Below are positions 24,825-53,946 of a DNA stretch of 64,000 nt, piece after piece. The stretch is from Aestuariivirga sp. (GTDB taxonomy: Bacteria > Pseudomonadota > Alphaproteobacteria > Rhizobiales > Aestuariivirgaceae). How positions within the stretch are numbered: the first letter of the stretch is position 1; every line of letters starts with the position of its first letter. The notes beneath the pieces were generated by a model, which had not been told where the DNA came from, made no database searches, and was given only the letters and a program-made list of their open reading frames with translations. The stretch is taken from positions 792 through 64,791 of the forward strand of contig JAYUHQ010000062.1 of NCBI GenBank assembly GCA_043766895.1, in the 5' to 3' direction. A program made the translations under genes and the position numbers.

Positions 24825-24852
24825 ACGTTAAGTAATTTTGCGCTTTTGTCAA
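24825..24852 (-). promoter_or_regulatory. Candidate sigma70 promoter for the LIV/HDAC operon
   Basis: The - strand reads TTGACA (24852-24847), 16 nt, TAACGT (24830-24825); the -35 overlaps the GMC stop codon. Confidence 0.45.
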
Positions 24853-26450
24853 GCACGCGTGGTTTGTTCTGCATCAATTATGAACCTTGCCGCTCTTTCT
24901 CCAATCATCATGGCCGGAGCATTGGTGTTGCCAGACACGAGCGTCGGCATAATTGAAACATCAGCAACCCTTAACCCGTGCACGCCGCGCACCCGAAGCA
25001 TCTCATCCACAACAGCGCCTTTGTCGGTGGCTGGCCCCATTTTACAGGTGCCAGAAGGATGAAAAACCGTCTTGGCCGTTGTGCGCACATAGTCACTAAG
25101 GGCTTCGTGATTGTTCTCAATACCAAGCTTTGGCAAAACCCGGCGCTTGATAATTTTTGCCAATGCTGGTGCCTCAAGAATTTTGATGGCCAGTTGCACA
25201 CCCCGCACCAAAGTATCAAGATCCGAAACATCTGAAAACGTATTGGCGTTGAACAGTGCTGAATCTTTTGGATTTGCAGAACGCAATTTCACGGTTCCCC
25301 GGGATTTCGGCCGCAAAATACAAGGGCCAATACTTAAGCCGTGGCCCGGCTCTGGCACCCGATCAGCAAAGCCAACCAATGCAGGCAAAACGTGAAACTG
25401 GATATCGGGCTGGCCTGTACCAGACACGTCTGCAAAGCCACCGCATTCAACAACATTCGAGGTTAACAGCCCCGTTTTGGTCAACAAATATTGCGCCATA
25501 TGCCTTGCTGCTGCCAAGCCCTTGTCTTGGCCTAACATCGAGATGGGGTGAATGGATTGTCCTTGTACTGGCGCTTCCATGTGGTCTTGATAATTTTCCC
25601 CCACACCGCGCACATCTGCGATAACAGCTACGCCATGGGCCGCAAGTTCAGCAGCATTGCCCACGCCCGAAAGTTGAAGAAGTTTTGGCGTGGCAATTGC
25701 ACCTGCACATAAAACAATTTCTTTGCGGGCTTTGATCGTAACGCCGGATTCAAGTTCAACCGCGCTGGCTATCTTACCATCAAACACAACACGCGCCACA
25801 CGGGTTTCGGTCATCACTTTTAAATTGTTGCGTTTTTCAGCATCTCGCAGAAATGCAACTGCTGCACTGAAACGTTTTCCACGATAAGTTGTGGTTTGAT
25901 AAAATCCAACGCCTTCTTGCACATTGCCATTAAAGTCACCGTTATAGGCAAGGCCCGCTTGCTGCGCTGCTTTAACAAACGCTTCACACAAAGGGTGCCC
26001 ATAAGCCTTGTCAGAAACTTTCAGCGGCCCATGGGTGCCATGAAATTCGTCTGATAGACTTTGGTTGTCTTCCAAGGCACGAAACACTGGCAATACTTTT
26101 TCATAAGACCAATTGCGATTTCCCAACTGGGCCCAAGTGTTGTAATCATCAGCCGAGCCACGAATATAAATCATGGCATTCACCGAGCTGCCACCCCCAA
26201 TCACATGCCCCTGTGGCACTAAGTTGGGCCTGTTGTTCATGTGCTTTTCGGGTTCACTTGCATAAAGTTGTGCGTCTTTGCCGCCTTCCAAAACTTTAAA
26301 AAACGTAGCGGGAATATGGATCCAGCGATTTTCATCGCGTCTGCCCGACTCGATTAACAGCACCCGGTTGCCAGGGTTCTCTGAAAGGCGTGCGGCCACA
26401 ACACACCCAGACGAGCCACCGCCAACAACAATGTAATCAAATTCAGTCAT
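24849..26450 (-). CDS. GMC family oxidoreductase (choline/alcohol dehydrogenase-like)
   Basis: GGGSSG FAD motif, GGGSSVNAMIY, FHPSGTCKMG and GNTNAP. Confidence 0.93.
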   Translation of the reverse strand: MTEFDYIVVGGGSSGCVVAARLSENPGNRVLLIESGRRDENRWIHIPATFFKVLEGGKDAQLYASEPEKHMNNRPNLVPQGHVIGGGSSVNAMIYIRGSADDYNTWAQLGNRNWSYEKVLPVFRALEDNQSLSDEFHGTHGPLKVSDKAYGHPLCEAFVKAAQQAGLAYNGDFNGNVQEGVGFYQTTTYRGKRFSAAVAFLRDAEKRNNLKVMTETRVARVVFDGKIASAVELESGVTIKARKEIVLCAGAIATPKLLQLSGVGNAAELAAHGVAVIADVRGVGENYQDHMEAPVQGQSIHPISMLGQDKGLAAARHMAQYLLTKTGLLTSNVVECGGFADVSGTGQPDIQFHVLPALVGFADRVPEPGHGLSIGPCILRPKSRGTVKLRSANPKDSALFNANTFSDVSDLDTLVRGVQLAIKILEAPALAKIIKRRVLPKLGIENNHEALSDYVRTTAKTVFHPSGTCKMGPATDKGAVVDEMLRVRGVHGLRVADVSIMPTLVSGNTNAPAMMIGERAARFIIDAEQTTRA

Positions 26451-26466: not shown

Positions 26467-27888
26467 TTATCGGATGACAGTTTGAACCGTTGTAAATTCT
26501 TTCAGGCCTTCTTCGCCAAACTCTATGCCAAAGCCAGATTGCTTCACGCCACCAAAAGGCGCGTTGGGTTGAATGGCACCGTGTTTGTTGATCCACACAG
26601 TGCCACATTCTAATCGGCCGGCAATCGCTTGCGCCTTGGCAATATCTTTGCTCCAAACCGATCCACCCAATCCGGCAGAATTGTCATTGGCTTTGGCAAT
26701 TGCCTCTTCAACAGTTGAAAACCGAATGATCGGCAAAGCCGGGCCAAACTGCTCTTCGTCCACCAATTTGCAGCCGTTATCAACATCCGCCACAAGTGTG
26801 ATGGGATAGAAATAACCCTTGCCGCCTGTTGGGGTGCCGCCCAGCAAAATTTGGCCGCCATTATGCTTTGCATCATCAACAAGTGATTTTATTTTTTCGA
26901 ATTGCATAGCGTTTTGTATGGGGCCCAGCGCGGAACCAGCATCAAGCCCATCACCTACTGGAATATTTTTGGCGTATGCAACCAAAGCGTTGCAAACTTC
27001 ATCATAGATATCATCATGCACATACAGGCGTTTTAATGCGGCGCAGGTTTGCCCGTTGTTGATAAAAGCACCCCAGAACAGACCTTCAGCAATGGCCAAG
27101 GGGTCTGCGTCTGGCAAAACAATTCCGGCGTCATTGCCGCCCAATTCCAAGGTGAGGCGCTTTAATGTTGCCGAAGCGCCTTCCATGATTTTGCGCCCTG
27201 TTGCGGTCGATCCGGTGAATGTGATCTTGGAAACATCGGGGTGGGTTGTCAGTGTAACCGCCACGGCGTTGTCACACGTGATGCAATTGACAACCCCGGC
27301 AGGCAAAACCTCATTCATCAATTCAACCATGCGCAGCGTGCTCAGTGGCGTATTGGGTGATGGCTTAATGATCACCGCGTTGCCAGCACGGATAGCGGGA
27401 ATAATGTGCCAACAAGCAATCATCACTGGCCAGTTCCAAGGTGTAATTGAAACAACAATGCCAATTGCTTTACGATGCAATTCAACGCGCCCTTCGGGAG
27501 AGTCTTGCAGAAGCTCAAAGGGCAATTTCAATCCCGCCGTATGGCGCGTCCAAGCCAGCGCTCCACCCAGCTCAAACCGCGAACCAAGCCCACCTAAAGG
27601 CTTTCCCTGTTCAAGGGTTAGAAGGGTTGCAAGCTCTTCGGCATGTTCTTCAATTTTTGCTGCAACCGCCAAACACGCCGCGGCGCGTTCAGCATCAGCA
27701 ACATCTTTCCAAGAGGCAAATGCTTTTTTTGCGGCCGCTATTGCTGCCTCAACGTCTTGATGCGTTGCCAACGGCATTTGACCTACAATTGCACCCGTCG
27801 ATGGATTAAGCACAGGCAACGACGCAAGTGTGCTGACGCGCTTTCCGCCGATTGTCATTGCATAGTCTGGCATTGGTTCTGCCTTCAT
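26467..27888 (-). CDS. Aldehyde dehydrogenase (phenylacetaldehyde dehydrogenase-like)
   Basis: ITPWNWP, FTGST, LELGGND, GQTC, EEQFGP and FGGVKQSG. Confidence 0.93.
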   Translation of the reverse strand: MKAEPMPDYAMTIGGKRVSTLASLPVLNPSTGAIVGQMPLATHQDVEAAIAAAKKAFASWKDVADAERAAACLAVAAKIEEHAEELATLLTLEQGKPLGGLGSRFELGGALAWTRHTAGLKLPFELLQDSPEGRVELHRKAIGIVVSITPWNWPVMIACWHIIPAIRAGNAVIIKPSPNTPLSTLRMVELMNEVLPAGVVNCITCDNAVAVTLTTHPDVSKITFTGSTATGRKIMEGASATLKRLTLELGGNDAGIVLPDADPLAIAEGLFWGAFINNGQTCAALKRLYVHDDIYDEVCNALVAYAKNIPVGDGLDAGSALGPIQNAMQFEKIKSLVDDAKHNGGQILLGGTPTGGKGYFYPITLVADVDNGCKLVDEEQFGPALPIIRFSTVEEAIAKANDNSAGLGGSVWSKDIAKAQAIAGRLECGTVWINKHGAIQPNAPFGGVKQSGFGIEFGEEGLKEFTTVQTVIR

Positions 27889-28009: not shown

Positions 28010-28975
28010 TTAACGCTTTTCGCGGTTCAAATAATCTTTCGGTGTACAATGAAAAACCTCACGAAAACACCGATTGAAATACGAGATATCGTTAAAACCT
28101 GTCGCATAAGCAACTTCTGCGATATTCAGTTTGGCGCCTTGCCGGTTGTTTTGCTGCAATTGTTCTTTTGCCAGGTGCAAACGGCGCATTCTGATAAGGG
28201 ACGTAGGCGTTGTGCCAAAGCCGCTGAAGTCATCCTGCAAGGTTCGCAGTGAAACACCCAATTTTTCTGCAAGCCAACGTGCCGTAAGGTTTTCATCAGT
28301 CAAATGGCGATCGATCAAAATTTGAACAATTTCCAAGCGCTCCCCAGCTGAATCCGCATGCGGCAATACATCAATTTCTTCTTGTGTTGCAAAAGCCTGT
28401 CGGGTGGCATCAAATAACAATCGTTGCAAATGTGGGGCACGTTTGTCTTGGGGCGCAACCTCAATCAATTTGGCAACAAGCGATCCTAACATCACCGACA
28501 TAGGATCTTGCGCAACAAGGCGGCGAGCAACATCAAGGCTCTGTGTCGCTTTGGTGAAAAGCAATTGACGGGGCAGATGCACTGATATGTGGTTTGAGTA
28601 TTGGCCACCAAAATGGAATACGGATGGTCGTGTAGAATCGACCAGAACACAATCTCCCGGAGAGATCACGTCCCTTCTATCTTTTTGTTCAATTCCACAG
28701 GTTCCTTCAAGTTGAATAAGCAAGAACAGATTTTCACCAAAATCCTGCCGAATGTCTTGCGCCTCTCGCCTAACTTCACCAAGATTGTTGGCAATATGAG
28801 CAACGTCAATGCCGCCTGCGGCAATAACACCAACATATCCAATAACTTCAGGTTGGTGTTCATGGCGCAGTGGATTATAGCGGCCACAAATCAACTGCAA
28901 ACGGCTTGACCAATCATCAAACTGCAATGCTTGCCGATGCGAAGCCGCATATTTGGACAATAGCGCAGAATCCAT
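28010..28975 (-). CDS. AraC family regulator, FeaR-like
   Basis: N-terminal ligand domain (ICGRY, PGDCVLVDS) and C-terminal LGVSLRTL...VAYATGFNDISYFNRCF. Confidence 0.9.
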   Translation of the reverse strand: MDSALLSKYAASHRQALQFDDWSSRLQLICGRYNPLRHEHQPEVIGYVGVIAAGGIDVAHIANNLGEVRREAQDIRQDFGENLFLLIQLEGTCGIEQKDRRDVISPGDCVLVDSTRPSVFHFGGQYSNHISVHLPRQLLFTKATQSLDVARRLVAQDPMSVMLGSLVAKLIEVAPQDKRAPHLQRLLFDATRQAFATQEEIDVLPHADSAGERLEIVQILIDRHLTDENLTARWLAEKLGVSLRTLQDDFSGFGTTPTSLIRMRRLHLAKEQLQQNNRQGAKLNIAEVAYATGFNDISYFNRCFREVFHCTPKDYLNREKR

Positions 28976-29059: not shown

Positions 29060-30349
29060 TTAGATGTAGTTGATATAAAAGTCTCTCAAAGTTTCGCCTT
29101 CTAGCTTAGCAGTCTTTTCAACTTCGGCCCGTTTCATAAAAACATGATTGTCAACCAGCGTTGTACCAACAGCTTCGCGCAATACTTGGTCTGCTTCCAA
29201 TTCATCCAAAGCTTGTGCAAGATTATCGGGCGCTGCCGATGTGGCGCTACTATGTTCAAAGCAATCGCCAGTCTCACGCGGAGGGAGAGGATAGTTGTTT
29301 TCCAAGCCAAGGCGCGCAGCTTGCAAAACTGTGGCCACCAACACATAGGGATTTGCCGCGCCATCACCCATACGGTGTTCAATGCGGGCTTTGGCTCCTC
29401 CTTCAGCAGATATGCGCGTGGTCACCCCGCGATGATCGCCACCCCAATTGCACCAATAACCAGACATGCTGGCGGGCTTAAGCCGATCATAGGAATTGGT
29501 GATTGGCGCTATCAGGCCAGCCATGCCGCGATGGTGATGCATAAGGCCTGCAACACAGCCCTTGGCCAGTGCTGTCATCTGCGCAGCTTCGCCGGGCTCA
29601 CCGATTGCGTTTTTATTTTTCTTATCGAGAAAACTAAAATTCACATGCGTGCCGCTGCCGCCTTTGTTTGCAAATGGCTTTGGCAAGCAGGTGAGAACAA
29701 TGCCATGTTTTGCGGCAATTTCGCGGGCCATCAAACGGAACAAAAAATGATCATCCACCGCCTTCACGGCATCATCATATTGCAAAGTGAATTCAAATTG
29801 TGGCGTGTCATATTCGGTTGTCAGCGACTCAAGTTTGAAACCTGCTTTCTCTGATGCAACCCAGATAGCATCACTGAACCCGCGCGGATCAGCAAATTGC
29901 CCCGTGCTGTAAACATATGAATGAGGCGTGTCATAGGGCTTCAAACTGCCGTCGGCCTCTCGTTGAAAAGCATAGGCTTCAATTTCCATGCCCACTTTGG
30001 CCTTAAGGCCGTGTTTTGCCCAATCAGCAACAGCACGTTTCAATGCAGTGCGGCCACACATCGGCAGTTCAGATCCATCCCATTGTTGTAAATCTCCAAC
30101 AACAACTTTTGTTTCTGGATCCCAGCTGTTGCGAATTTCAGCCTTGCGATAAACCGCCTGCATGTCTGGCGCACCATCCATCATTCTGCAGCCGGGGGCT
30201 GGTAAAAGGTCACGATCAAAATGCACGCCAAACAACGCTTGCGCAAACCGCGACGCACCGTTGGCTTGCATTTTGTCAGCGGGCAAATATTTGCCACGCG
30301 CAATATTCAAATGATCACAAAACAAAAGTCTTAAACGTTGACGGGCCAT
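29060..30349 (-). CDS. Glutamine synthetase-like gamma-glutamyl-amine ligase
   Basis: GMEIEAY, TEYDTPQFEFT, GSGTHVNFS, NSYDRL and RIEHR; PuuA/PauA-like rather than GlnA. Confidence 0.88.
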   Translation of the reverse strand: MARQRLRLLFCDHLNIARGKYLPADKMQANGASRFAQALFGVHFDRDLLPAPGCRMMDGAPDMQAVYRKAEIRNSWDPETKVVVGDLQQWDGSELPMCGRTALKRAVADWAKHGLKAKVGMEIEAYAFQREADGSLKPYDTPHSYVYSTGQFADPRGFSDAIWVASEKAGFKLESLTTEYDTPQFEFTLQYDDAVKAVDDHFLFRLMAREIAAKHGIVLTCLPKPFANKGGSGTHVNFSFLDKKNKNAIGEPGEAAQMTALAKGCVAGLMHHHRGMAGLIAPITNSYDRLKPASMSGYWCNWGGDHRGVTTRISAEGGAKARIEHRMGDGAANPYVLVATVLQAARLGLENNYPLPPRETGDCFEHSSATSAAPDNLAQALDELEADQVLREAVGTTLVDNHVFMKRAEVEKTAKLEGETLRDFYINYI

Positions 30350-30359
30350 GTGTGTTTCC

Positions 30360-31619
30360 TCAATTTAATGAAATGCGAACAGGCAGACGCTTGATGCCGC
30401 CTACAAAATTAGATCTGACATAGGCATGTTGCCCCACCTGCTCGATCGAGCGCAGCCGCTTGGAAATTTCTTGAAACACAATTCGCACTTCAAGCTTTGC
30501 CAGCCACATGCCCAAGCACACATGTGCGCCTCCTTGGCCGAATGCCAAGTGGCGGTTGGGTGTCCGGCGAAAGTCTACGATGTTCGGATTGTTAAATGCA
30601 TTTTCATCACGATTGCCTGATGCAAACCAGAACAAAACTTTGTCACCTTCACGAATGGTTTTGCCATGCAATTCGCCGTCGCGCGTTGCAGTGCGGCGGA
30701 AATATGTAGCAGGCGATGCCCAACGGATGACTTCGTCTGGCAATGTTGTCCAAATGTTTGGGTCTTCGTGCAAATCAGCGAGCAACCCTGGTTGGTTGGC
30801 AAGTGCATGCAGGCCCGCCGCAATCGAATAGCGGGTGGTATCATTTCCGGCTGCTACCAATAAGCAAAAGAAGTTCTTGAACTCAGATTCAGAAATCACG
30901 TTGCCCTCAGCATCCGGCTGCAACATCATTTGCAAAATTCCGCTTTCATCGCCACGTCTTTTGCGTTCAGCCATCATGCGTTCAGCATAATCAAAAAGCT
31001 CTGCTCCCGCTGGCGATCGAAATGGCATAAATCGATAAGCGTCTGTGTCCATTTTATCGACAACAGTTGCGGTGAAATCACTATCACTATTGGCCATCAA
31101 CGCATCGCCTTTTTCAACCAGCCAATTCAAATCTTCGTCTGGCGTTCCCATAATTTGTCCCAACATCCGCATCGGCAGCTGGCGCGCAATTGTCTGAACT
31201 GCATCAAATTCTTTGCTCTGAAATGCTTCATCTAAAATCTCAACGCATAATTCACGAATTTGATTTTCAAATTGAATAACAACAGGCTGGGAAAAAGCCT
31301 TGGAAACCAACCGGCGCACCCGCGTATGGTCTGGGGCATCGGTTTCCTGAAACGTCCGGCGCGCCAAATATTCTTCGTAAGTCTGGTCTTCCATACGAAT
31401 GCCACGGGCAGAACTCATCCAAGCGCTGTCGCGGTTCAAGGCTAAAATATCGTCATGACGGGTAACCGACCAAAAGCCCTTGCCGTCGGCATAATCACAC
31501 CAGGCAACGGGGTCTTCTTGGCGCATCCTTGCAAAAGTATTCAGCGGCAGACCGTTCACAAAACTATCATGAAGCGATAGATCGGCATGGCCATCATCAT
31601 TTGCAGTCCAAATTGTCAT
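30360..31619 (-). CDS. Cytochrome P450
   Basis: I-helix AAGNDTT, ExxR (EVIR) and heme-ligand motif FGQGGAHVCLG. Confidence 0.95.
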   Translation of the reverse strand: MTIWTANDDGHADLSLHDSFVNGLPLNTFARMRQEDPVAWCDYADGKGFWSVTRHDDILALNRDSAWMSSARGIRMEDQTYEEYLARRTFQETDAPDHTRVRRLVSKAFSQPVVIQFENQIRELCVEILDEAFQSKEFDAVQTIARQLPMRMLGQIMGTPDEDLNWLVEKGDALMANSDSDFTATVVDKMDTDAYRFMPFRSPAGAELFDYAERMMAERKRRGDESGILQMMLQPDAEGNVISESEFKNFFCLLVAAGNDTTRYSIAAGLHALANQPGLLADLHEDPNIWTTLPDEVIRWASPATYFRRTATRDGELHGKTIREGDKVLFWFASGNRDENAFNNPNIVDFRRTPNRHLAFGQGGAHVCLGMWLAKLEVRIVFQEISKRLRSIEQVGQHAYVRSNFVGGIKRLPVRISLN

Positions 31620-31689
31620 CTTAATACTTTCCTCGCAATTGCGCGTGAACGTTACACATGTTAATTATTCGATCAAGGAGTTGACACCC

Positions 31690-32397
31690 ATGCATATCGG
31701 AATTTTGGTGACAAATACGGATCGATCTGATTTTGCAAAGGCGCGAGCAGATGACGGTGAAAAATTTCGAGCCTTGCTGCAACCCTTGCGGCCACATTGG
31801 CAATTCACTGCGGTCCAAGTCAGAGATGGTAAATTTCCAAAAGCAGTTCATGCCTTTGATGGCTATGTTATTACTGGCAGCCCGGCCTCGGCCAATGGCG
31901 GCGAAGCATGGATCGAGAAATTGATGGGCTTCATTAGGGAATTGAACCTTGCTCACATACCAACGGTCGGCATCTGCTTTGGCCACCAGGTGATTGCCCG
32001 TGCGCTTGGTGGCAGCGTTGGCAAGAACCCCGAAGGTTGGGGATTTGGCATTTCGCCCACACATTTCACCGCCCATCAGTCGTGGATGTTGCCCGCCCAA
32101 ACCACGGTGAATCTTTATGCCGCGCACACTGAGCAAGTTATTACGTTGCCTAAAAATGCTGAAGCATTGGGCGGCAGCCCATTTTGCCCAATTGGGTCTT
32201 ACAAAATTGGTGATCACATTTTTACAACGGAATATCACCCAGAAATGACACCCGAATTCATCACGGATCTTTCGCACGAAAAAGAAAACTATATCGGCCA
32301 ACCCATTGCCGAACGTGCGCGCGAACAATTCAAAACTCCCGCTGATGGCAAAATTTTTGCCCAGTGGATGGTTCAGTTTTTTGAATTGCCGCGTTAA
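31690..32397 (+). CDS. Type 1 glutamine amidotransferase (gamma-glutamyl hydrolase-like)
   Basis: ITGSP, GICFGHQ nucleophile and YHPE. AAGGAG RBS before ATG 31690. Confidence 0.9.
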   Translation: MHIGILVTNTDRSDFAKARADDGEKFRALLQPLRPHWQFTAVQVRDGKFPKAVHAFDGYVITGSPASANGGEAWIEKLMGFIRELNLAHIPTVGICFGHQVIARALGGSVGKNPEGWGFGISPTHFTAHQSWMLPAQTTVNLYAAHTEQVITLPKNAEALGGSPFCPIGSYKIGDHIFTTEYHPEMTPEFITDLSHEKENYIGQPIAERAREQFKTPADGKIFAQWMVQFFELPR

Positions 32398-33878
32398 AGC
32401 TGAATCCATGCTGTTTTAAGTTCTGAATATTTATCCAGCGCATGCAATGATTTGTCATGGCCATTGCCGCTTTGTTTCACGCCCCCCAAAGGCACTGTAT
32501 TATCAGCCCCGCCATATGTATTCACATGCACAACACCCGCTTTAATGCCGCGCACCATGCGATGCGCCTTGGAAAGATTTGAAGTCCACACAGCGGAGGC
32601 CAAACCAAACACAGTAGAATTGGCAATGCGCAAAGCATCGTCTTCATCACTAAATTTCATCACCCCCAACACCGGGCCAAACACTTCGTTTTGCGCCAAA
32701 TCCATTTGGGAAGTTACGTTTGAAATGACCGTGGGGGCCATATAAAAGCCGCCTGTATTTTCGAGAATGCGTTGGCCGCCTGTTTCAATTTTTCCGCCTT
32801 CGCTTTGCGCACGCGAAACAAAATCTAAATCCTTTTGCAATTGGTCTAAACTGGTTACGGCGCCTGCTTCGGTGCCAAGGTCAAGTGGATCGCCCACTTT
32901 TATTTTTGCAGAAATGCTCGCAACTTTAGCCACAAATTCGTCGTGGATTTTATCTTCCACCAACAGTCGGGAACCGGCCACACACACTTGGCCAGAGTTG
33001 CGGAATATCCCATAAGCAGAGATTTTAGCGGCAACATCAAGATTGGGTGCATCAGCAAAAACAATGTTGGGAGACTTTCCGCCCAGTTCCAGATAGCAGC
33101 GCTTTAAATTTGACTTGGCAGAATATTCCAGCAATTTGCGCCCCACCATGCCTGAGCCTGTGAAGGCCAAAACATCGATATCCATATGAAGGCCAAGTGC
33201 CTCACCCACCACTGAACCTTTGCCTGTAACCACGTTTAACACGCCATCAGGAAGTCCCGCTTCTGAACACAGCTCTGCCAAACGCAACAAAGACAGAGAC
33301 GCTACTTCAGCTGGCTTCAGAACCACACTGTTGCCGGCTGCAAGTGCTGGCGCTATTTTCCACGAACCAATCATCAATGGAAAATTCCAAGGCACAATTG
33401 CTGCCACAACCCCTATGGGCTCTCGGTGAATAAGCCCAAGAATATTATTCGCGGTGGGTGCAATCTCACCATACACTTTATCAATTGCCTCGGCATAATA
33501 GCGGAATGTTCCGCCAGCACTTCCCGGCTCAGCCTTGATTGCCATAGAAATTTCGGTGCCGTTATCACGCACACCCAAAACCGCCAATTCCAAGGCATGC
33601 TTCTCAATAAGATCTGCAATCCGATGCATCACTTTTTTGCGCTCGGCTGGTGCGGCTTTGGACCATACGCCTGAATCAAAACTTGCGCGTGCTGCCTTCA
33701 CAGCAAGATCAGCATCAACAGCAGTCGCCAGTGAAATCGATGAAAACACTTTGCCATCAATCGGCGACAATACCGCGTGAATGCCACCAGCCTGGGCTTC
33801 CACGTGCTTGCCATTGATGAACAGTTTTTGCGCCGAAACGGGCAGAATGCGAAGCCGATTGATCTCTGATTGAGACAT
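32394..33878 (-). CDS. Aldehyde dehydrogenase (PuuC-like)
   Basis: IVPWNFP, FTGS, LELGGKSPN, GQVC and EVFGP. Start moved to MSQSE. Confidence 0.92.
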   Translation of the reverse strand: MSQSEINRLRILPVSAQKLFINGKHVEAQAGGIHAVLSPIDGKVFSSISLATAVDADLAVKAARASFDSGVWSKAAPAERKKVMHRIADLIEKHALELAVLGVRDNGTEISMAIKAEPGSAGGTFRYYAEAIDKVYGEIAPTANNILGLIHREPIGVVAAIVPWNFPLMIGSWKIAPALAAGNSVVLKPAEVASLSLLRLAELCSEAGLPDGVLNVVTGKGSVVGEALGLHMDIDVLAFTGSGMVGRKLLEYSAKSNLKRCYLELGGKSPNIVFADAPNLDVAAKISAYGIFRNSGQVCVAGSRLLVEDKIHDEFVAKVASISAKIKVGDPLDLGTEAGAVTSLDQLQKDLDFVSRAQSEGGKIETGGQRILENTGGFYMAPTVISNVTSQMDLAQNEVFGPVLGVMKFSDEDDALRIANSTVFGLASAVWTSNLSKAHRMVRGIKAGVVHVNTYGGADNTVPLGGVKQSGNGHDKSLHALDKYSELKTAWIQL

Positions 33879-33892
33879 AGTATTCTCCGAAA

Positions 33893-33928
33893 AAAGGAAA
33901 AAGAGCGACACAGAAGTGCCGCTCTTTT
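33893..33928 (-). terminator. Rho-independent terminator between the APC permease and ALDH genes
   Basis: The - strand reads AAAAGAGCGGCAC-TTCT-GTGTCGCTCTTTT (one G-U pair) followed by a T-rich tract. Confidence 0.65.
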
Positions 33929-33941
33929 TGTTGGTGAGTGG

Positions 33942-35381
33942 TTATGTGTTGCTGCCAAGAGCTTGGAATTTGACAGGATTATTCGTTTCCAAACGGCTGG
34001 CAGAAATAAAGCCCACGATAGCAGCGACGATTACCAACGATGGCAAAATAACACCAAGTGAACCAACAGCGCCCGTTAAATCTCCAAACTTTGCGAAGAT
34101 GTAAACGAACAACGCCGCCATGATCACACCCGCAATGATCGGCAAGACTTTTACCGACAGCGCGTTCTCGCCCATTGCGTCTTTTGCAAAAAAGGCAACG
34201 ACTGAGAAAGATGTAACGGCCATCAAACCCAAAATTCCGAGCGTTCCAAGCTGGGTGAGCCAGGTGAACAACTGTAACACGGGGTCAAGTCCCATTATTG
34301 CAAAGAAGCCAACAACCACGATTGCTAGGATCGTTTGAATGATGGAACCCACATGTGGGCTTTGAAATGTATCATGTGTCACACCAACAGAAGCTGGCAA
34401 CAATCCTTCACGGCCAGCCACATATTTATACCGCGCCACACCATTGTGAAATGCCAGCACCCCAGCAAACAAGCTGGACACGAACAGAAAGCCCATAATG
34501 GTAGGAACTGGCCCGCCAACATAACGCCCTGCAAGATCAAACAGGAATGTTGTTGGATCTTTGAGTGCCTGCAATGTTGGCAACAATTTATCCACGCCTG
34601 CACCAACAGCCATCAACCATGATGTGAGCATATAGAACACACCAATCAGAATGACGGAGTAGTAGGTTGCTTTTGGAACGGTAATATGTGGATCTTTAGC
34701 TTCTTCTGAATAGATTGTTGTGGCTTCAAAACCAATAAATGCCGCAAAGCAGAACAAGATGCCAATGGCGGGCGAACCCATCATTACAGCGCTGGGCGTG
34801 AACGGTGTCAAAGAAAGACCAGAGTCGCCACCCTTAACGAAAATGGCAACATCAAGAATGAGCACAATGAGATATTCGAGGGCGACCAGCGCCATCAAAA
34901 TTTTGGCAGACAACTCTACTTGCCGATAGCCCAGAATGCCCGCAAATGCGATGCCAACAAAGCTCCACACCCACCACGGGAAGTTCAAACCGATGGAAGC
35001 AAATGTTCCTGCTGAAGCAGCGCCAAGCAACCCCAGAATGCCAATCTGCATGGCGTTATAGCTGAAAATTGCAACCATCGCCGATGCGCCGCCGATTTTG
35101 CCGCCAAGCCCGCGCGCGGCAAGTGCATAAAAACCGCCAGCACTTGAAACGTGCCGCGCCATTGCCACGTAACCAACTGCAAAAACCAACAATATTGCGG
35201 TTGCTAATAAAAATGAACCGACAATGCCTGCGCCATTTCCAAGCAACATGCTTATGGGAACGCCGCCGGCAACTGCCGTCAATGGTGCGGCCGCCGAAAT
35301 AACCAAGAACGTAACCGCCCCAACACCAAGACTGTTTTTTCGCAACTGGTTTGCACCAGCTGTAGCTGAAGTATTTGCCAT
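33942..35381 (-). CDS. APC family amino-acid/amine permease
   Basis: SAAAP (TM1), FIGFEATTIYSEEA and about 12 TM segments. Confidence 0.92.
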   Translation of the reverse strand: MANTSATAGANQLRKNSLGVGAVTFLVISAAAPLTAVAGGVPISMLLGNGAGIVGSFLLATAILLVFAVGYVAMARHVSSAGGFYALAARGLGGKIGGASAMVAIFSYNAMQIGILGLLGAASAGTFASIGLNFPWWVWSFVGIAFAGILGYRQVELSAKILMALVALEYLIVLILDVAIFVKGGDSGLSLTPFTPSAVMMGSPAIGILFCFAAFIGFEATTIYSEEAKDPHITVPKATYYSVILIGVFYMLTSWLMAVGAGVDKLLPTLQALKDPTTFLFDLAGRYVGGPVPTIMGFLFVSSLFAGVLAFHNGVARYKYVAGREGLLPASVGVTHDTFQSPHVGSIIQTILAIVVVGFFAIMGLDPVLQLFTWLTQLGTLGILGLMAVTSFSVVAFFAKDAMGENALSVKVLPIIAGVIMAALFVYIFAKFGDLTGAVGSLGVILPSLVIVAAIVGFISASRLETNNPVKFQALGSNT

Positions 35382-35438: not shown

Positions 35439-35521
35439 TTCGGTGCAAATATAGACTTGCAAAAAAATGCGGCGAGTGTCAAGTTATTTTACGTGTTAAG
35501 AAAATTAGGGCTAACCTCTTT

Positions 35522-36289
35522 ATGGGAACAGTCAGTAAAGCATTAGGATTGTTGAATATTTTGGCGGGTACACACGCCCCAAAAGGCTTGACTGAAATTG
35601 CCAAAGCAGCGGGATTCGACAAGGCCACAACGCGTAGACTTTTGGTTGAGCTGAGCAGCAACGGCTATGTTGTGCAAGATTCGGACAGCCGTGATTATGA
35701 GTTGGGGCCGGCGTTGCAAGTATTGGGCAAAACACGTGAAGAGCGGTTTCCGCTCTATCGCACAACATTGCCTTTTGTTCGTGCATTGGCCGAACAGACC
35801 GATGAAACCGTGCACGCAACTGAATACAGTTCCGGGGTGTTGCTTTCGATCTGCATTGAACATTCAACCAAGGCAAACCGCGTGAGTTTGGAACAGGGCC
35901 AAAGATTGCCACTTCATGCCACGGCTTCGGGAATTGCTTTTCTTGCTGCATCTCAACCAGCCTTCGTCGACAGCGTGGCAGGCAAACCATTGGCTCATTT
36001 TACTCCAACCACTTCAACATCACGCGATGCCCTGTTGAAAGTCGTTCAGGAAGCAAAAAAGCGCGGATATTCAATCAGCAATCAATCCCTTGAAGCAGGC
36101 GTAAGCAGCGTTGCTGCTGCAATTTGCATTCAAGTTGGCAAGCCAATTGGCACAATCGCAATTGCGGTTCCAACCTTGCGCATGTCACCAAAGACTATTG
36201 CTGAATTTGGCGCTTTGGTGCGCAAGGCCGCTGACGAAGTTTCTCACCACCTTTCCGGACGCGCAACAAATATGCAAAAATCATCATAA
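35522..36289 (+). CDS. IclR family regulator
   Basis: MGTVSKALGLL, HTH GLTEIAKAAGFDKATTRRLL, PLHATASG and GVSSVAA. Start moved to 35522. Confidence 0.93.
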   Translation: MGTVSKALGLLNILAGTHAPKGLTEIAKAAGFDKATTRRLLVELSSNGYVVQDSDSRDYELGPALQVLGKTREERFPLYRTTLPFVRALAEQTDETVHATEYSSGVLLSICIEHSTKANRVSLEQGQRLPLHATASGIAFLAASQPAFVDSVAGKPLAHFTPTTSTSRDALLKVVQEAKKRGYSISNQSLEAGVSSVAAAICIQVGKPIGTIAIAVPTLRMSPKTIAEFGALVRKAADEVSHHLSGRATNMQKSS

Positions 36290-36299
36290 CAAGGAGCCA

Positions 36300-37547
36300 A
36301 TGATGAGCACTCCACGAATTCTCATAATCGGCACCGGAGACACCAAATCCGATGAACTCACCTTCATGCGTGAATGTGTTTCAACAGCGGGCGGCCATGC
36401 AGTAATGATGGATGTATCCATTCTTGGCGAACCCCAGTTTATACCGCAATACTCCAAACATGATGTGGCCGCGGCTGCCGAAACAACCATTGATGCTGTT
36501 ATCAAATCTGGCGATGAAAACTCGGCAATGGCCATGATGGCAGATGGCGCTTCTAAACTTTCTCGGCATCTCTATGATCAACAGAAGATTGATGCTGTAA
36601 TAATACTCGGCGGATCAATGGGAACTGACTTAGCCCTGGATGTTGCCAATGCATTGCCATTAGGTGTTCCAAAATTTGTTGTTTCGACAATCTCTTTCTC
36701 GCACCTTATTCCGCCTGAACGAATTTCCACTGATTTGATGATGATCCTTTGGGCTGGTGGATTGTATGGCCTTAACAGCATTTGCAAATCGGTTTTAAGT
36801 CAAGCCTGTGGTGCCGTTGTGGGCGCGGCGCGCGCAAGCGTTAAGCCTCAAAACACGCGTCCGGTGATTGGTATGACATCGCTTGGTAAAAGTTGTTTGA
36901 AATATATGGTGCCCCTAAAGCCAGCACTGGAAAAGCGGGGCTATGAAGTGGCCGTGTTTCACACCACCGGCATGGGTGGCCGCGCTTTTGAATCAGTCGC
37001 ATCACAGAAAACTTTTGCAGCAGTGATGGATTTTAGTTTGCAAGAAGTGGTGAACCATGAAAATGGTGTGCTGGCAACATCGTCAGGTTGGGACCGGCTG
37101 GAAAATGCAGGCCGTGTTGCAATCCCACAAATTGTGGCGCCAGGTGCCGTAGACATGGTCGACTTGCCTTCTTGGCTGCCCTTGCCAAAAGAATTCGCAG
37201 ATCGACCTTACCATGCCCATAATCGGCTGATCGGTTCAATCACAACTGATCCTGAGGGCCGCCGAAAAACTGCGCGCACCATTGCCCACAAACTTGAACG
37301 CGCCTTGGGCCCTGTCGCACTCATTCTGCCAACGGGTGGAATTGAAGAATGGGATCAGCAGGGCGAACCCTTGCATGACCCCGACGGATTACACGCTTTT
37401 GTCGAAGCCATGCGCCTTGCGGTAAAAGCGCCGGTGGAACTTCATGAAATTCCAGATCATATCAACAGCCCCGCCTTCGCGGCCAAGGCACTCGAGGTGT
37501 TTGATACCTGGGTGGCGGCGGGAATTATTCCTGCAGGACAGCTATGA
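36300..37547 (+). CDS. Tm-1-like ATP-binding domain protein (UPF0261)
   Basis: IIGTGDTKSDE, LGGSMGT, ALPLGVPK, FHTTGMGGRAFE and PGAVDMV. AAGGAG RBS before ATG 36300. Confidence 0.85.
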   Translation: MMSTPRILIIGTGDTKSDELTFMRECVSTAGGHAVMMDVSILGEPQFIPQYSKHDVAAAAETTIDAVIKSGDENSAMAMMADGASKLSRHLYDQQKIDAVIILGGSMGTDLALDVANALPLGVPKFVVSTISFSHLIPPERISTDLMMILWAGGLYGLNSICKSVLSQACGAVVGAARASVKPQNTRPVIGMTSLGKSCLKYMVPLKPALEKRGYEVAVFHTTGMGGRAFESVASQKTFAAVMDFSLQEVVNHENGVLATSSGWDRLENAGRVAIPQIVAPGAVDMVDLPSWLPLPKEFADRPYHAHNRLIGSITTDPEGRRKTARTIAHKLERALGPVALILPTGGIEEWDQQGEPLHDPDGLHAFVEAMRLAVKAPVELHEIPDHINSPAFAAKALEVFDTWVAAGIIPAGQL

Positions 37548-38215
37548 CAAAACGCGCCCTGATCTTAGATTTTGGCGGTGTCATTACGCGAACACTGTTT
37601 GAAACTCACAGCCTTACCGAAAAATCGCTAGGCTTGAAACCGGGCACCCTTATTTGGCGGGGGCCTTTTGATGTCGCAACTGACCCGTTATGGCAATCTA
37701 TGCAAAATGACGAAATGAGCGAGCGTGATTATTGGATGAGGCGCACGCAAGAAGTGGGAAGCCTTGTTGGTGAAAATTGGACAACGATGGAAACTTTCGT
37801 TCAGCGTGCGCGTGGCGCCGAGCCTGAGTTGGTGTTGCGGCCCGAGGCACGCATTGCCATCGAAACCGCAAAAGCCAATGGCATGCACCTTGCCATTCTT
37901 TCTAATGAATTAGACTTGTTTTACGGTGCAGATTTTCGCAAACGTTTTCCATTGATGGAACTGTTTGATGTGATCGTTGATGCCACCTACACAAAAATTC
38001 TAAAACCTGATCCGCGCAGCTATCGTGCCTGCCTTTCTGAACTTGATATTGACGCAAACGCTTGTGTCTTTGTTGATGATCAAAAGCGAAATGTTGATGG
38101 CGCACGCGCTGTGGGAATTCCCACAATACATTTCGATGTGATGAAACCTGCCCACAGTTTTGCCGCAGCGCTCAACCTGCTCGGTCTCAAATATAAGGAA
38201 CCCGCTCATGCGTAA
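37544..38215 (+). CDS. HAD family hydrolase
   Basis: ILDFGGV, ILSN, KPDP and FVDD motifs. Confidence 0.9.
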   Translation: MTKRALILDFGGVITRTLFETHSLTEKSLGLKPGTLIWRGPFDVATDPLWQSMQNDEMSERDYWMRRTQEVGSLVGENWTTMETFVQRARGAEPELVLRPEARIAIETAKANGMHLAILSNELDLFYGADFRKRFPLMELFDVIVDATYTKILKPDPRSYRACLSELDIDANACVFVDDQKRNVDGARAVGIPTIHFDVMKPAHSFAAALNLLGLKYKEPAHA

Positions 38216-39554
38216 CGCTAATTTCCTCAAAGAAAATAATGCCCGCCACATGTGGCACGCAATGGCCAACGCGGGCGACATGCGGGCAAACCCACCCCAA
38301 ATCATCAACACTGCGAAATTAGCGGAAATTACTGACATTGACGGCCACACGGTTTTAGATGCCGTTGGTGGTTTGTGGAATGTAAATCTTGGCTATTCCT
38401 GTGAGCCAGTCAAAAAAGCCATCCGCGACCAATTGGATTCCCTCCCCTATTATTCAACATTTCGTGGCACCACCAATGCGCCACTCATCGAACTTTCGTA
38501 TGAGTTGGCAGAATTTTTTAAACCTGAAGGCATGACGCGTTCGTTCTTCACTTCCGGTGGATCAGACTCGGTGGAATCGGCGCTGCGTCTGGCTCGGCAA
38601 TATCATAAACTCAAAGGTCAACCTGAACGCACTAAATTCTTCGCTCTCAAAAAAGGTTACCATGGCACTCATTTTGGCGGCGCATCAGTCAATGGCAATG
38701 CCAATTTCCGCCGCGCTTATGAACCTTTGTTGCCCGGTGTGTTTCACTTGCCTGCACCGTGGACCTATCGCAATCCGTTCAACACTACCGATGGCGCAAT
38801 AATCGCGCAAAAAATTGCTGCGCTGTTTGAAGATGAAATTGCTTTTCAAGGTGCGGACACGATTGCGGCTTTCATCATGGAACCTGTTTTAGGCGCAGGT
38901 GGTGTTATTGTGCCCCATGAAAGCTTCATGCCTCTTATGCGGGCGATTTGTGACAAGCACGGCATTCTGATGATTGCCGACGAAGTGATTACAGCTTTTG
39001 GCCGCACCGGCGCGTGGACTGGTTCACGCCTTTGGGGGGTGCAACCTGATATGATCTGCACGGCCAAAGCCATCACCAATGCCTACTATCCTTTCGGTGC
39101 AGTGATGATTCATGAAAAGCTTACTGAAGCCTTTGAAACGTCCAAATCACCTCTTGCATCTATTGGCCATGGCTATACTTATTCAGGCCATCCGGTGGGT
39201 GCTGCTGCTGCGCTTGCAACACTGGCTGAAACCAAACGCCTTAACGTGAAAGATAATGCGGCTGCACGTGGCCATAAATTGTTGGCTGGTCTGGAAAACT
39301 TGAAGGCCAAACATAATGCTGTCGGCGACGTCCGCGGCATTGGTTTGATGTGCGCGCTTGAACTTGTGTCTGATCGTGAAAAAAAATCTGCCCCCGCCAA
39401 AGAAGCCGTGCAGAAGGTTCAAGACATAGCATATAAGGCGGGCGTGATGGTGCGCACTTCCGGGCCGAATATCATTCTATCTCCACCGCTGATCATTACC
39501 GCAAAGGATGTGAACCGCATTCTTTCAGCACTTGATGAGGGGCTTTCTGCGTGA
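38208..39554 (+). CDS. Class III aminotransferase (omega-amine type)
   Basis: DAVGGLWNVNLG, SGGSDSVE, GYHG, DEVITAFGRTG, TAK and HGYTYSGHP. Start moved to 38208. Confidence 0.93.
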   Translation: MRNANFLKENNARHMWHAMANAGDMRANPPQIINTAKLAEITDIDGHTVLDAVGGLWNVNLGYSCEPVKKAIRDQLDSLPYYSTFRGTTNAPLIELSYELAEFFKPEGMTRSFFTSGGSDSVESALRLARQYHKLKGQPERTKFFALKKGYHGTHFGGASVNGNANFRRAYEPLLPGVFHLPAPWTYRNPFNTTDGAIIAQKIAALFEDEIAFQGADTIAAFIMEPVLGAGGVIVPHESFMPLMRAICDKHGILMIADEVITAFGRTGAWTGSRLWGVQPDMICTAKAITNAYYPFGAVMIHEKLTEAFETSKSPLASIGHGYTYSGHPVGAAAALATLAETKRLNVKDNAAARGHKLLAGLENLKAKHNAVGDVRGIGLMCALELVSDREKKSAPAKEAVQKVQDIAYKAGVMVRTSGPNIILSPPLIITAKDVNRILSALDEGLSA

Positions 39555-47339: not shown

Positions 47340-47977
47340 GCGATGTGCTTCTCTATGACTACTGGCGATCGTCAGCAAGCTACCGCGTACGCATTGCCCT
47401 CAATTTAGCCGGCGTTGCATATAAAAGCGTTTCAGTTGATCTTTTGAAACGCGAACATAAGGCCCCTGAGCACCTTGCGCGCAATCCGCAAGGCTTGGTT
47501 CCCGCGCTGTTTATTGATGGTGTAGTGCTTACACAATCTTTGGCCATCATCGAATATCTTGCACAAACGCGCAAAATTTCATGTTTCCCCGCAGACCCCA
47601 TTGCATGTGCACAAGTGCGTTCAATTGCCTACGCAATCGCAATGGATATTCACCCCGTCTGCAATTTAAATGTGGTGGCGCATGTGTTGCAACTCACCAA
47701 TGGCAATGATGAAACAAGATTTGCGTGGATGCAAAAATTCATTGGCGAGGGTCTCGACGCAGTTGAGGCAATGGTACAGAAAACGACAGGCCCGCTATGT
47801 TACAGTGATGAGATAACAATTGCTGATATGTGTTTGATCCCACAAGTTTATAACGCGAAACGCTGGGGTATAGACGTGACCAAATACGCGCGTATCACCA
47901 GCATTGTCGAAGAACTAAAACCCAATGCGGCATTTGTTGCAGCAGAACCAGAGAACGTTAGGCCTCAGGCAAAGTAA
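47336..47977 (+). CDS. maiA: Maleylacetoacetate isomerase (GST zeta)
   Basis: YWRSSASYRVRIALN, NPQGLVP, TQSLAIIEYL and DIHPVCN. Confidence 0.95.
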   Translation: MSDVLLYDYWRSSASYRVRIALNLAGVAYKSVSVDLLKREHKAPEHLARNPQGLVPALFIDGVVLTQSLAIIEYLAQTRKISCFPADPIACAQVRSIAYAIAMDIHPVCNLNVVAHVLQLTNGNDETRFAWMQKFIGEGLDAVEAMVQKTTGPLCYSDEITIADMCLIPQVYNAKRWGIDVTKYARITSIVEELKPNAAFVAAEPENVRPQAK

Positions 47978-49624: not shown

Positions 49625-49625
49625 T

Positions 49626-51038: not shown

Positions 51039-51049
51039 TTTTCATTACC

Positions 51050-52030: not shown

Positions 52031-52033
52031 GGC

Positions 52034-53548: not shown

Positions 53549-53559
53549 AGATGTGCCTC

Positions 53560-53946
53560 TCAACGATTACGCAAGCGCGGATGAATTGCATTTTTTTTCC
53601 AGCTCAAATCAGCATCAATTTCTCTGATTTCGAGAGACAGCGCAAAATGTGGAGTAGCAAATTGCGGAACAAAAAACTCTGTCATGGTCGCAAACACCGC
53701 CTCGCCTACGCTCACTTTCTCCTCTTCCGAACGACCCTTTCCAATCCGCAAGCTGCCATCAACAAAAGCGTTTTGCGGCATGTCGTCAGCAACAACGAAA
53801 ATATCAGATCGGAATGCGCGAACCCTGATTGCACCCAATTCGAAAAGCTTGGTTTCATAAAGCCTCTTCACCAATAGCCTGCAAAGATCTTGCAAATTGG
53901 CAACGCCATCAAGATTGGCGCTATATTCCAGTGTGAGATGAGGCAT
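53560..53946 (-). CDS. hpaF: 5-carboxymethyl-2-hydroxymuconate isomerase
   Basis: MPHLTLEYSANL (catalytic N-terminal Pro), GAIRVRA and GKGR. Confidence 0.92.
   Translation of the reverse strand: MPHLTLEYSANLDGVANLQDLCRLLVKRLYETKLFELGAIRVRAFRSDIFVVADDMPQNAFVDGSLRIGKGRSEEEKVSVGEAVFATMTEFFVPQFATPHFALSLEIREIDADLSWKKNAIHPRLRNR

Follow-up and report, generated by a model that had tools for sequence, protein, structure and literature searches.

Here, we describe a cytochrome P450 gene cluster from Aestuariivirga sp. (Alphaproteobacteria, Rhizobiales) in a 64,000-nucleotide stretch of DNA (NCBI GenBank assembly GCA_043766895.1, contig JAYUHQ010000062.1, positions 792 to 64,791 of the forward strand) that we refer to as the window. 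The P450 gene stands between genes for a ligase with the glutamine synthetase (GS) fold and for a class-I glutamine amidotransferase (GATase)-fold protein. This arrangement recurs far beyond chance. It belongs to a catabolic module, widespread and uncharacterised, of which there is one copy in the window. The conserved gene set has no flavoprotein of the PuuB type, and a P450 that works on a gamma-glutamyl-protected amine is therefore the natural reading; we put the probability that the P450 acts on a gamma-glutamylated amine at roughly three in four. Four lines of evidence, namely synteny, a shared promoter motif, co-occurrence with HpaD and the missing HpaB, point to C6-C2 aromatic amines and homoprotocatechuate (3,4-dihydroxyphenylacetate). 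We regard it as an even call that the amine is an aromatic ethylamine feeding homoprotocatechuate.

A conserved P450, ligase and amidotransferase unit

Genes were called from an open reading frame (ORF) listing and from Pfam and NCBIfam profile scans of the window proteins. The P450 and its immediate neighbours are:

29060..30349, minus strand: GS-fold ligase, probable ATP-dependent gamma-glutamyl-amine synthetase (Gln-synt_C, E 1.7e-73)
30360..31619, minus strand: cytochrome P450, 419 aa, class I type requiring ferredoxin and reductase (PF00067, 64.4 bits, cut-off 22.8)
31690..32397, plus strand: class-I GATase-fold protein, probable gamma-glutamyl-amide hydrolase (PF00117, E 5.8e-13)
32394..33911, minus strand: PuuC-like aldehyde dehydrogenase, ALDH1 (Aldedh, E 8.7e-159)
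33942..35381, minus strand: APC-family amino acid/amine permease (AA_permease_2 and AA_permease matches)

An earlier note on this DNA had placed the P450 and the ligase 10 bp apart, with the GATase divergent and the PuuC-like dehydrogenase and the permease adjacent, and all five genes lie where it put them; exactly 10 bp (30350-30359) separate the P450 stop from the ligase start. The GATase ORF spans 31639-32397 with a likely ATG start at 31690, 8 nt behind the ribosome-binding site AAGGAG. The gene is divergent from the P450 gene across a 70-bp spacer and convergent with ALDH1, which it overlaps by 4 bp. A 262-aa minus-strand ATG ORF (31621-32409), antisense to the whole GATase gene, was considered as a fifth operon gene and rejected as a shadow ORF, because it has no family match and a conserved GATase lies on the opposite strand. 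For ALDH1 the probable true start is the ATG at 33878. Between this start and the permease stop there is a 14-pair hairpin with a T-run (33898-33929, minus strand), which could be a terminator or an attenuator within the permease-ALDH1 unit. A sigma-70 promoter scan gave fewer sites than in shuffled sequence and was hence not used.

The P450 has the haem motif FGQGGAHVCLG, the I-helix motif AAGNDTT and EVIRW as its ExxR motif, and C368, D260/T261/T262 and E296/R299 are invariant across nine family members with identities down to 58%. Its B'/C-loop (SSARGIRMEDQ..EEY.AR.TFQE.D) is invariant in the family and unusually charged, with Arg residues that are also conserved, which would suit a zwitterionic glutamyl moiety. 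The nearest solved structures are a CYP125 ancestor and CYP268, 126, 124, 153 and 108. The ligase scores 203 bits with the NCBIfam model for type III GS (cut-off 470) and 197.5 bits with that for the PuuA-type gamma-glutamylputrescine synthetase (NF045547, cut-off 650), and its nearest solved relatives are GmaS (7cql), NpaA1 (8wwu) and PA5508 (4hpp). By eye it keeps MEIEAYAF, EYDTPQFEF, KPFANKGGSGTH, SYDRL and EHRMGDGAANPY, which appear to be the metal, ATP and glutamate motifs of GS. The GATase matches the NCBIfam amidotransferase model PRK05665 (160 bits) and has its Cys in GICFGHQ together with HPE, and the PuuD-type Peptidase_C26 model stays below cut-off on it (17.8 against 20.5 bits). 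The best NCBIfam model for ALDH1 is PuuC (NF007352) at 555.5 bits, with a cut-off of 850, followed by the phenylacetaldehyde dehydrogenase StyD at 430 bits; with the motifs ELGGKSP and GQVCVAG (catalytic Cys), it is by its scores PuuC-like and not a PuuC equivalog.

More than 120 protein clusters are 70% or more identical to the P450, and a pattern scan with one genome per species found at least 475 genomes that encode a relative. We fetched 80 loci, mapped the window proteins onto them, clustered all locus ORFs and then re-mapped them (loci are numbered with L and contigs of the window's genome with C). The closest relatives (84-92% identity) are from Aestuariivirga and Hyphomicrobiales metagenome-assembled genomes (MAGs). 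The ligase gene lies directly downstream of the P450 gene in 69 of the 70 loci with enough flank, so the adjacency is not unique to this genome, a finding that would have spoken against the reading of the earlier note. The GATase gene adjoins the P450 gene in 65 of 73 loci, divergently in 37 (Alphaproteobacteria, as here) and co-directionally in 28 (Burkholderiales). The three-gene unit is kept across Alpha-, Beta- and Gammaproteobacteria, and the P450-ligase pairing is also found at 65% and 58% P450 identity on megaplasmids of Ruegeria sp. TM1040 and Novosphingobium. Even in the range of 38-40% P450 identity a Streptomyces canus plasmid has the order ferredoxin, reductase / GS, P450, and a Sagittula stellata plasmid has AraC / GS, GATase, P450.

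The core module consists of the GATase, the P450 and the GS-like ligase, joined in other genomes by a ferredoxin and a reductase. Conserved as satellites are the aldehyde dehydrogenase and the APC permease, together with an omega-transaminase, a kinase-like protein of the UPF0261 family and a hydrolase of the HAD family. The transaminase, AT3a, is the commonest accessory gene after the ferredoxin (37 of the 80 loci), and it tends to be present or absent jointly with the GATase. ALDH1 follows at 45% identity or more in 25 loci, UPF0261 in 24, HAD in 24, always adjoining UPF0261 and/or AT3a, and the permease in 13. The remaining satellites of the window are encoded beyond the permease:

35522..36289, plus strand: IclR-family regulator, heads the plus-strand operon (HTH_IclR and IclR_C)
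36300..37547, plus strand: UPF0261 (Tm-1/MarK-family) ATP-binding protein, probable small-molecule kinase (UPF0261 N and C domains)
37544..38215, plus strand: HAD-IA hydrolase, probable phosphatase (HAD matches; overlaps the UPF0261 stop, ATGA)
38160..39554, plus strand: class-III omega-amine:pyruvate-type transaminase AT3a (NF005683, 740 bits, above the cut-off of 575)

With overlapping stops and starts, these genes (35522-39554) form an operon divergent from the permease gene. The UPF0261 protein scores 641 bits with NF002676, above the cut-off of 556, and an IclR regulator is linked to AT3a, HAD and UPF0261 in 13 loci. In Limnohabitans and other Burkholderiales a single co-directional operon runs AraC / GATase, P450, GS, ferredoxin (reductase), ALDH1, omega-transaminase, UPF0261, HAD, and the window holds all four of its last genes. 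The conserved set therefore extends past the span of 29060-35381 to which the earlier note had confined the cluster, and includes the operon of transaminase, UPF0261 and HAD genes at 35.5-39.6 kb. An FAD oxidase of the PuuB/PauB type was found neither at 24-42 kb of the window nor among the gene families that recur in the 80 loci.

Six loci (L004, L009, L011, L020, L066 and L068) have a second, unrelated P450 of about 393 aa (24-26% identical to the main one) beside the permease gene, and in three of them it lies just upstream of ALDH1 (L004:55-1140, L009:545-1879, L011:3785-4966). One of these loci comes from an Aestuariivirga MAG, and its main P450 shares 92% identity with that of the window, which itself lacks the second gene. 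The other P450 of the window's genome (contig C385) was considered as its orthologue and rejected at an identity of only 24-26%.

No ferredoxin or P450 reductase gene was found in the window by profile scans (Fer2 and Reductase_C match only on other contigs), by tblastn with the cluster-linked ferredoxin and reductase, which hit nothing on the window's contig, or by a Cys-motif scan of all six frames, which returned out-of-frame noise only. This confirms the absence that the earlier note had reported. Among the 80 related loci, 52 have a 105-aa [2Fe-2S] ferredoxin after the ligase gene and 11 have a reductase of the putidaredoxin-reductase type. The P450 is therefore a class I enzyme of the ordinary kind, for which partners encoded in cis are the rule. 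Following up the suggestion to search the genome for partners, we found a 106-aa [2Fe-2S] ferredoxin on contig C348, 44-47% identical to the cluster-linked ones, and directly after it a thioredoxin-reductase-like flavoprotein (C348:4374-5743). The genome's only putidaredoxin-reductase-type gene is split over contig ends (C51:38086-38841 and C192:28886-29272). Candidate redox partners in this genome thus appear to sit in trans, a judgement on linkage that is limited by an assembly of 405 contigs and about 95% completeness. The N-terminal half of the split reductase gene adjoins a fatty-acid-desaturase/AlkB-like gene.

Links to homoprotocatechuate catabolism

The features that tie the cluster to aromatic catabolism in the window are:

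28010..28975, minus strand: FeaR-like AraC regulator (NCBIfam FeaR, 175 bits, cut-off 199)
31656..31664, minus strand: operator-like site TTAACATGT, 45 nt upstream of the P450 ATG in the 70-bp GATase/P450 spacer
35489..35497, minus strand: operator-like site TTAACACGT, a one-mismatch copy in the 140-bp divergent permease/IclR spacer
47965..53563, minus strand: hpaE-hpaD-AADC-hpaG-like-hpaH operon for homoprotocatechuate meta-cleavage
53971..53982, no strand: palindrome TTAACATGTTAA in the hpaE/hpaR spacer
54054..54542, plus strand: HpaR (MarR family) regulator (TIGR02337, 162 bits, cut-off 121)

The hpa operon lies 15 kb from the cluster, which is further accompanied by hpaR, hmgA/maiA and the FeaR-like regulator. 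The window proteins pass the cut-offs for HpaE (771 against 638 bits), HpaD (409 against 321) and HpaH (400 against 351), so that equivalogs of HpaD, HpaE, HpaH and HpaR are all in the same genome region as the cluster. Embedded within the operon, at 49626-51038, is a gene for an aromatic-L-amino-acid decarboxylase (AADC). Its best solved relative is DOPA decarboxylase (7xin, 383 bits), and it also resembles plant and animal aromatic amino-acid decarboxylases. The solved structures nearest to AT3a are omega- and amine transaminases. These nearest relatives of AT3a and AADC, together with the FeaR-like regulator, appear to fit an aromatic amine as substrate.

Such links recur elsewhere. Of the 80 loci, 18 have genes for hpa enzymes, hmgA or AADC within 8 kb of the P450 gene, and at least five distinct arrangements occur among them. 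In Dongia and relatives a co-directional operon runs ALDH, LigB dioxygenase, FAH, (acetoacetate-decarboxylase-family protein/decarboxylase), P450, GS, ferredoxin, reductase, and the same modules, including a homoprotocatechuate dioxygenase, are found on Novosphingobium and Streptomyces plasmids. In Ruegeria TM1040, paaABCDE lies next to the cluster. The FeaR-like regulator and the second aldehyde dehydrogenase of the window (ALDH2, below) also follow the ligase gene in L006, and in L029 they occur with a GMC oxidoreductase. The acetoacetate-decarboxylase-family protein lies between the FAH-family gene and the P450 gene in Dongia (L068:7161-7961), and the loci of Novosphingobium and Streptomyces (L002, L088) have one within their LigB/ALDH/FAH block.

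A shared operator-like motif forms the second line. The window holds four copies of ACATGTTAA, where 0.62 would be expected, and all lie in promoter spacers: two as the palindrome TTAACATGTTAA between hpaE and hpaR, one before the P450 gene and one at 56.1 kb. In the related loci TTAACATGT is almost confined to spacers: about 20 alphaproteobacterial loci have it 43-67 nt upstream of the P450 gene, four have it 69-118 nt before the permease gene, and one has it upstream of ALDH1. The TTAACACGT site of the window is 108-116 nt upstream of the permease ATG; L008 and L011 have TTAACATGTG sites at the same place (115-118 nt upstream of the permease gene), and in L005 and L007 the site is 69-74 nt upstream. 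The palindrome TTAACATGTTAA is also found in the hpaR spacer of six loci (L010, L011, L013, L017, L070 and L081). Given that the P450/GS, permease/ALDH1 and hpa promoters share this motif, they are probably co-regulated.

Two further occurrences of related sequence were noted. Four overlapping copies or near-copies of AACATGTT at 56110-56148 lie upstream of genes unrelated by annotation and may mark a further member of the regulon. A two-mismatch copy of the 13-mer, AACGTGTGAAATA, lies at 24817-24829 (minus strand) in the spacer upstream of a periplasmic-binding-protein gene (23536-24717) that heads a neighbouring transporter/deacylase operon.

Co-occurrence was assessed in 25 carrier genomes without hpa genes near the P450 gene. 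Type-I HpaD alone was above cut-off in 6 of the 25, a weak co-occurrence, and a model of LigB-type HpaD was added after this result. It was above cut-off in 16 of 18 tested among the remaining carriers, and in 20 of 79 P450-negative genomes from a family-level sample around one Limnohabitans carrier (Fisher p = 8e-7, a statistic that ignores phylogeny). The classical source of homoprotocatechuate, from 4-hydroxyphenylacetate by an HpaB-family hydroxylase, was found neither in the window's genome nor in 25 of 33 carrier genomes, and the hpa pathway of these genomes is therefore without it.

Between the transaminase operon and the hpa operon lies a block (42242-47977) that encodes a MarR regulator, hmgA, a 340-aa protein without NCBIfam match, a metallo-beta-lactamase-fold protein, an FAD monooxygenase (PRK08132) and maiA. 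This block is kept beside the P450 cluster in three further loci (L013, L064 and L082) and may be a homogentisate branch for monohydroxy products.

A proposed route and its alternatives

From the observed gene identities, synteny, motif and co-occurrence we infer a route of which the substrate, every chemical step, the order of steps and the P450 regiochemistry are proposals. An aromatic ethylamine of the tyramine, dopamine or phenylethylamine type would enter through the permease, or would arise from the amino acid by the action of AADC. The GS-like ligase would then join the amine to the gamma-carboxyl of glutamate in an ATP-driven step, and the P450 would oxidise the gamma-glutamyl-amide with electrons from a ferredoxin and reductase encoded in trans. 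After the GATase-fold enzyme has taken off the glutamate, AT3a would turn the amine into an arylacetaldehyde and ALDH1 would turn the aldehyde into homoprotocatechuate, whose ring the enzymes of the hpa operon would open. This order would employ each conserved enzyme once and would account for the joint presence or absence of GATase and AT3a.

The P450 step would most likely be a hydroxylation that retains the amide. The reaction we prefer, although only tentatively, is a 3-hydroxylation of the ring, which would lead from tyramine level to dopamine level; alternatives are hydroxylation next to the nitrogen (giving aldehyde and glutamine), side-chain hydroxylation and O-demethylation. The earlier note had proposed that the P450 replaces PuuB on a gamma-glutamyl-protected amine. 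The functional unit is indeed conserved and PuuB is absent, but, given an aromatic amine, the gene content agrees better with a hydroxylation that keeps the amide than with a deamination of the PuuB kind.

Several observations weigh against this route. Both the putative substrate and the putative regiochemistry are read from gene context, and the nearest solved relatives of the P450 (CYP124, 125, 153 and 108) hydroxylate terminal methyls of lipids, steroids and terpenes, not aromatic rings. The Dongia-type operons are without GATase and transaminase, and the linear route is therefore incomplete there; it also gives UPF0261 and HAD no step. Burkholderiales operons have no aromatic catabolic gene within 8 kb, many carriers are Limnohabitans-like in a co-occurrence test uncorrected for phylogeny, and an adjacent GntR regulator, rather than HpaR, might bind the motif in some lineages. 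HpaB is present in 8 of 33 carriers, and 4-hydroxyphenylacetate hydroxylases outside the HpaB family were not searched for.

The alternative that survives best has the P450 stand in for PuuB in full. It would hydroxylate the carbon next to the amide nitrogen of a glutamylated amine, which could be an arylethylamine or a diamine. The carbinolamide would fall apart into aldehyde and glutamine, the GATase would serve as a glutaminase and ALDH1 would oxidise the aldehyde. Class-I GATases are glutaminases by ancestry, the conserved set holds no PuuB-type flavoprotein, and one-step deamination would explain the Dongia, Novosphingobium and Streptomyces operons, in which P450, GS, ferredoxin and reductase occur without GATase or transaminase. 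The dioxygenase systems for aniline and naphthylamine likewise act on a gamma-glutamyl-arylamide, and according to Takeo et al. in 2013 they reportedly release glutamine along with catechol. However, AT3a, present in 37 of the 80 loci, would be left without a role, and the joint presence or absence of GATase and AT3a fits a branch of deprotection followed by transamination better. We consider full PuuB replacement unlikely.

Somewhat less likely still is a pathway of the Ipu kind, in which the P450 would hydroxylate a terminal methyl and the amine would be small and aliphatic: isopropylamine, ethylamine, propylamine or a branched amine that arises when an amino acid is decarboxylated. The deglutamylated amino alcohol would then be handled by a GMC dehydrogenase and ALDH2, or by a kinase and phospho-lyase pair, for which the window has candidates:

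24849..26450, minus strand: GMC (choline-dehydrogenase-like) alcohol oxidoreductase (GMC_oxred_N and GMC_oxred_C; PRK02106, 550 bits, missing the cut-off of 605)
26467..27888, minus strand: second aldehyde dehydrogenase ALDH2, phenylacetaldehyde/aminobutyraldehyde-dehydrogenase-like (Aldedh, E 9.9e-146; PRK13473, 424 bits; StyD, 394 bits)
39551-40831 and 40813-41808, plus strand: AGXT2L-like PLP enzyme and APH-type kinase (both match the fused kinase-aminotransferase models PRK06148 and PRK06149)

The last two genes are, to judge by their matches, a probable amino-alcohol kinase and phospho-lyase pair that is accessory to the cluster, and a similar pair stands beside it in just one other locus (L017). 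Both this pair and the GMC/ALDH2 pair suit amino alcohols, the nearest solved P450s are terminal-methyl hydroxylases, and the enzyme set as a whole (GS-like ligase, P450, ferredoxin, reductase, GATase, permease, ALDH) matches the ipu clusters. Nevertheless, GMC/ALDH2 and the kinase/lyase pair accompany the cluster in just two or three of 80 loci. The P450 also keeps 66-92% identity in three classes of proteobacteria, which suggests that the substrate they share is a natural one and not a xenobiotic. A small aliphatic amine would also leave the hpa/AADC synteny, the motif in the hpaR promoter and the HpaD co-occurrence unexplained. The AGXT2L-like/APH pair could in addition deaminate beta-hydroxylated arylethylamines of the octopamine type to arylacetaldehydes via phosphorylation and elimination.

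Polyamine catabolism of the Puu/Pau type (putrescine, cadaverine or spermidine), with the P450 doing the oxidation step, we hold to be improbable. PuuC is the best model for ALDH1, the ligase also matches the gamma-glutamylputrescine synthetase model, and AT3a resembles polyamine:pyruvate and putrescine transaminases among others. The Puu scores, however, are far under the equivalog cut-offs (197 against 650 bits for PuuA and 555 against 850 for PuuC), there is no polyamine ABC transporter, PuuB or PuuD of the Peptidase_C26 type, and the aromatic links would go unexplained. By its members the set is not a pathway of the Puu/Pau type with which the earlier note had compared it, and the context points to aromatic ethylamines that feed homoprotocatechuate, not to polyamines. 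Most improbable of all is that the genes are accidental neighbours, with a P450 that has no link to the ligase and acts on a lipid, terpene or steroid. The nearest solved P450s do act on such compounds, but the adjacency is found in several classes, where the median apparent spacing is 40 bp, and it survives the rearrangement of every other gene and the fall to 38-40% P450 identity in Actinomycetota.

Relation to known systems and implications

The earlier note did not know the architecture as characterised, but the Ipu pathway already combines a ligase, a P450 system and an amidotransferase-type hydrolase: IpuC makes gamma-glutamyl-isopropylamide, a multicomponent P450 turns it into gamma-glutamyl-L-alaninol and the hydrolase releases L-alaninol (PMC6776027, PMC1713258). 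Ipu systems are present in Pseudomonas sp. KIE171 and on pTC1 and pTC2 of Paenarthrobacter/Arthrobacter aurescens TC1, where consecutive locus tags of pTC1 encode GATase, P450, ferredoxin, ferredoxin reductase and IpuC (PMC6776027, PMC1713258). Compared by gene content, the two designs share a GS-like ligase, a P450 oxidising a glutamylated amine, an amidotransferase-type hydrolase, a permease and aldehyde dehydrogenases. In contrast to the Ipu order, the family studied here has the order GATase, P450, GS, ferredoxin, reductase; the window's cluster is without the last two and adds the omega-transaminase, UPF0261 and HAD. Furthermore, this family is tied to homoprotocatechuate catabolism, whereas Ipu is tied to s-triazine or alkylamine use. 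The 2002 paper on KIE171 reportedly demonstrated IpuC and IpuF biochemically and only inferred the oxygenase.

The Puu and Pau pathways (PuuA-E of E. coli and PauA-D of P. aeruginosa) proceed by a ligase, an oxidation, an aldehyde dehydrogenase, a gamma-glutamyl hydrolase and a class-III transaminase. The cluster has the same step types, with PuuC as the best model for ALDH1, and differs in lacking PuuB, in a hydrolase that is a class-I GATase and not Peptidase_C26, and in its aromatic context. The aniline and 1-naphthylamine systems (TdnQ/TdnT/TdnA, AtdA1-A5 and NpaA1-A5) pair a GS-like ligase and a GATase-like hydrolase with a Rieske dioxygenase that acts on the gamma-glutamylated aromatic amine. 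They share with the cluster the triad of ligase, hydrolase and oxygenase, and NpaA1 (8wwu) is among the solved relatives of our ligase. In these systems, however, the oxygenase is a Rieske dioxygenase on ring-bound amines. The cluster has a P450 in its place, and its accompanying decarboxylase, transaminase and ALDH suggest that the amine is borne on an ethylamine side chain. Rieske oxygenase subunits were not found in the window or the 80 close loci, and a ring-hydroxylating dioxygenase stands only beside the distant Sagittula cluster. Poupin et al. in 1999 reportedly described the pip locus of Mycolicibacterium smegmatis, said to serve cyclic secondary amines, with pipR, the pipA P450, a ferredoxin and a GS-like gene adjacent. 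The P450/GS-like adjacency is common to both, while the host there is actinobacterial and the P450 is of a different family.

The Cre and Acv/MarK pathways phosphorylate a phenol, oxidise or carboxylate it and then take the phosphate off again; the oxidant of Cre, known from Corynebacterium glutamicum, is a P450 that depends on a ferredoxin and a reductase. The likeness of our cluster to Cre and to Acv/MarK is a kinase and a phosphatase around oxidative steps, with the UPF0261 protein as a MarK homologue, encoded in one operon with the P450 in Burkholderiales. It aligns over its full length to the MarK structure 9mpy (157 bits) and keeps DTK of the ATP site (GDTK), G195, the phenolate-binding H219 (VFHTTG) and H304. 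Differences from Acv/MarK are the lack of a carboxylase and four pocket residues: those that line the acetovanillone pocket of MarK are replaced (T196K, F283M, I285D and H348W), which implies that the UPF0261 substrate differs and is probably more polar. MarK uses ATP to phosphorylate phenolic hydroxyls, and no other catalysis has been reported for UPF0261 proteins (PMC12624787).

A bolder extension, which we regard as speculative and rather unlikely, is that glutamate, and possibly phosphate too, is a removable protecting group in an undescribed route for tyrosine, tyramine or dopamine that is co-regulated with the hpa genes. The ligase would mask the amine, so that the P450 could make or handle an oxidation-prone catechol without quinone cyclisation, and in operons of the Dongia, Novosphingobium and Streptomyces type the tag may persist until the ring has undergone extradiol cleavage. 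A second tag, phenol phosphate, may be put on by the MarK-like UPF0261 kinase and taken off by the HAD phosphatase, as in Cre/Acv, and the P450 would be the missing source of homoprotocatechuate in freshwater and marine bacteria that have HpaD without HpaB.

Literature searches (for gamma-glutamyl-tyramine, -dopamine and -phenylethylamine, for PA5508, and for homoprotocatechuate with tyramine, P450 and GS) returned no description of the cluster. The Ipu-type design is known, and this family, its homoprotocatechuate wiring and its extra genes appear in none of the papers searched.

If the proposed route from glutamylated aromatic ethylamines to homoprotocatechuate is true, abundant lake and ocean bacteria would consume biogenic aromatic amines without an amine oxidase; the carriers, at least 475 species genomes, include Limnohabitans, roseobacters and Hyphomicrobiales. 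The strategy of tagging, oxidising and untagging, which has to date been demonstrated for no more than a few amines, xenobiotic or simple, would extend to biogenic aromatic amines, and the origin of homoprotocatechuate in genomes with HpaD and without HpaB would be explained. The barely characterised UPF0261 kinases would gain a second physiological context, and the enzymes could serve as biocatalysts that hydroxylate protected amines regioselectively. A function would also be assigned to an orphan family of P450s with very high conservation, and to the GS-like ligase that partners it.

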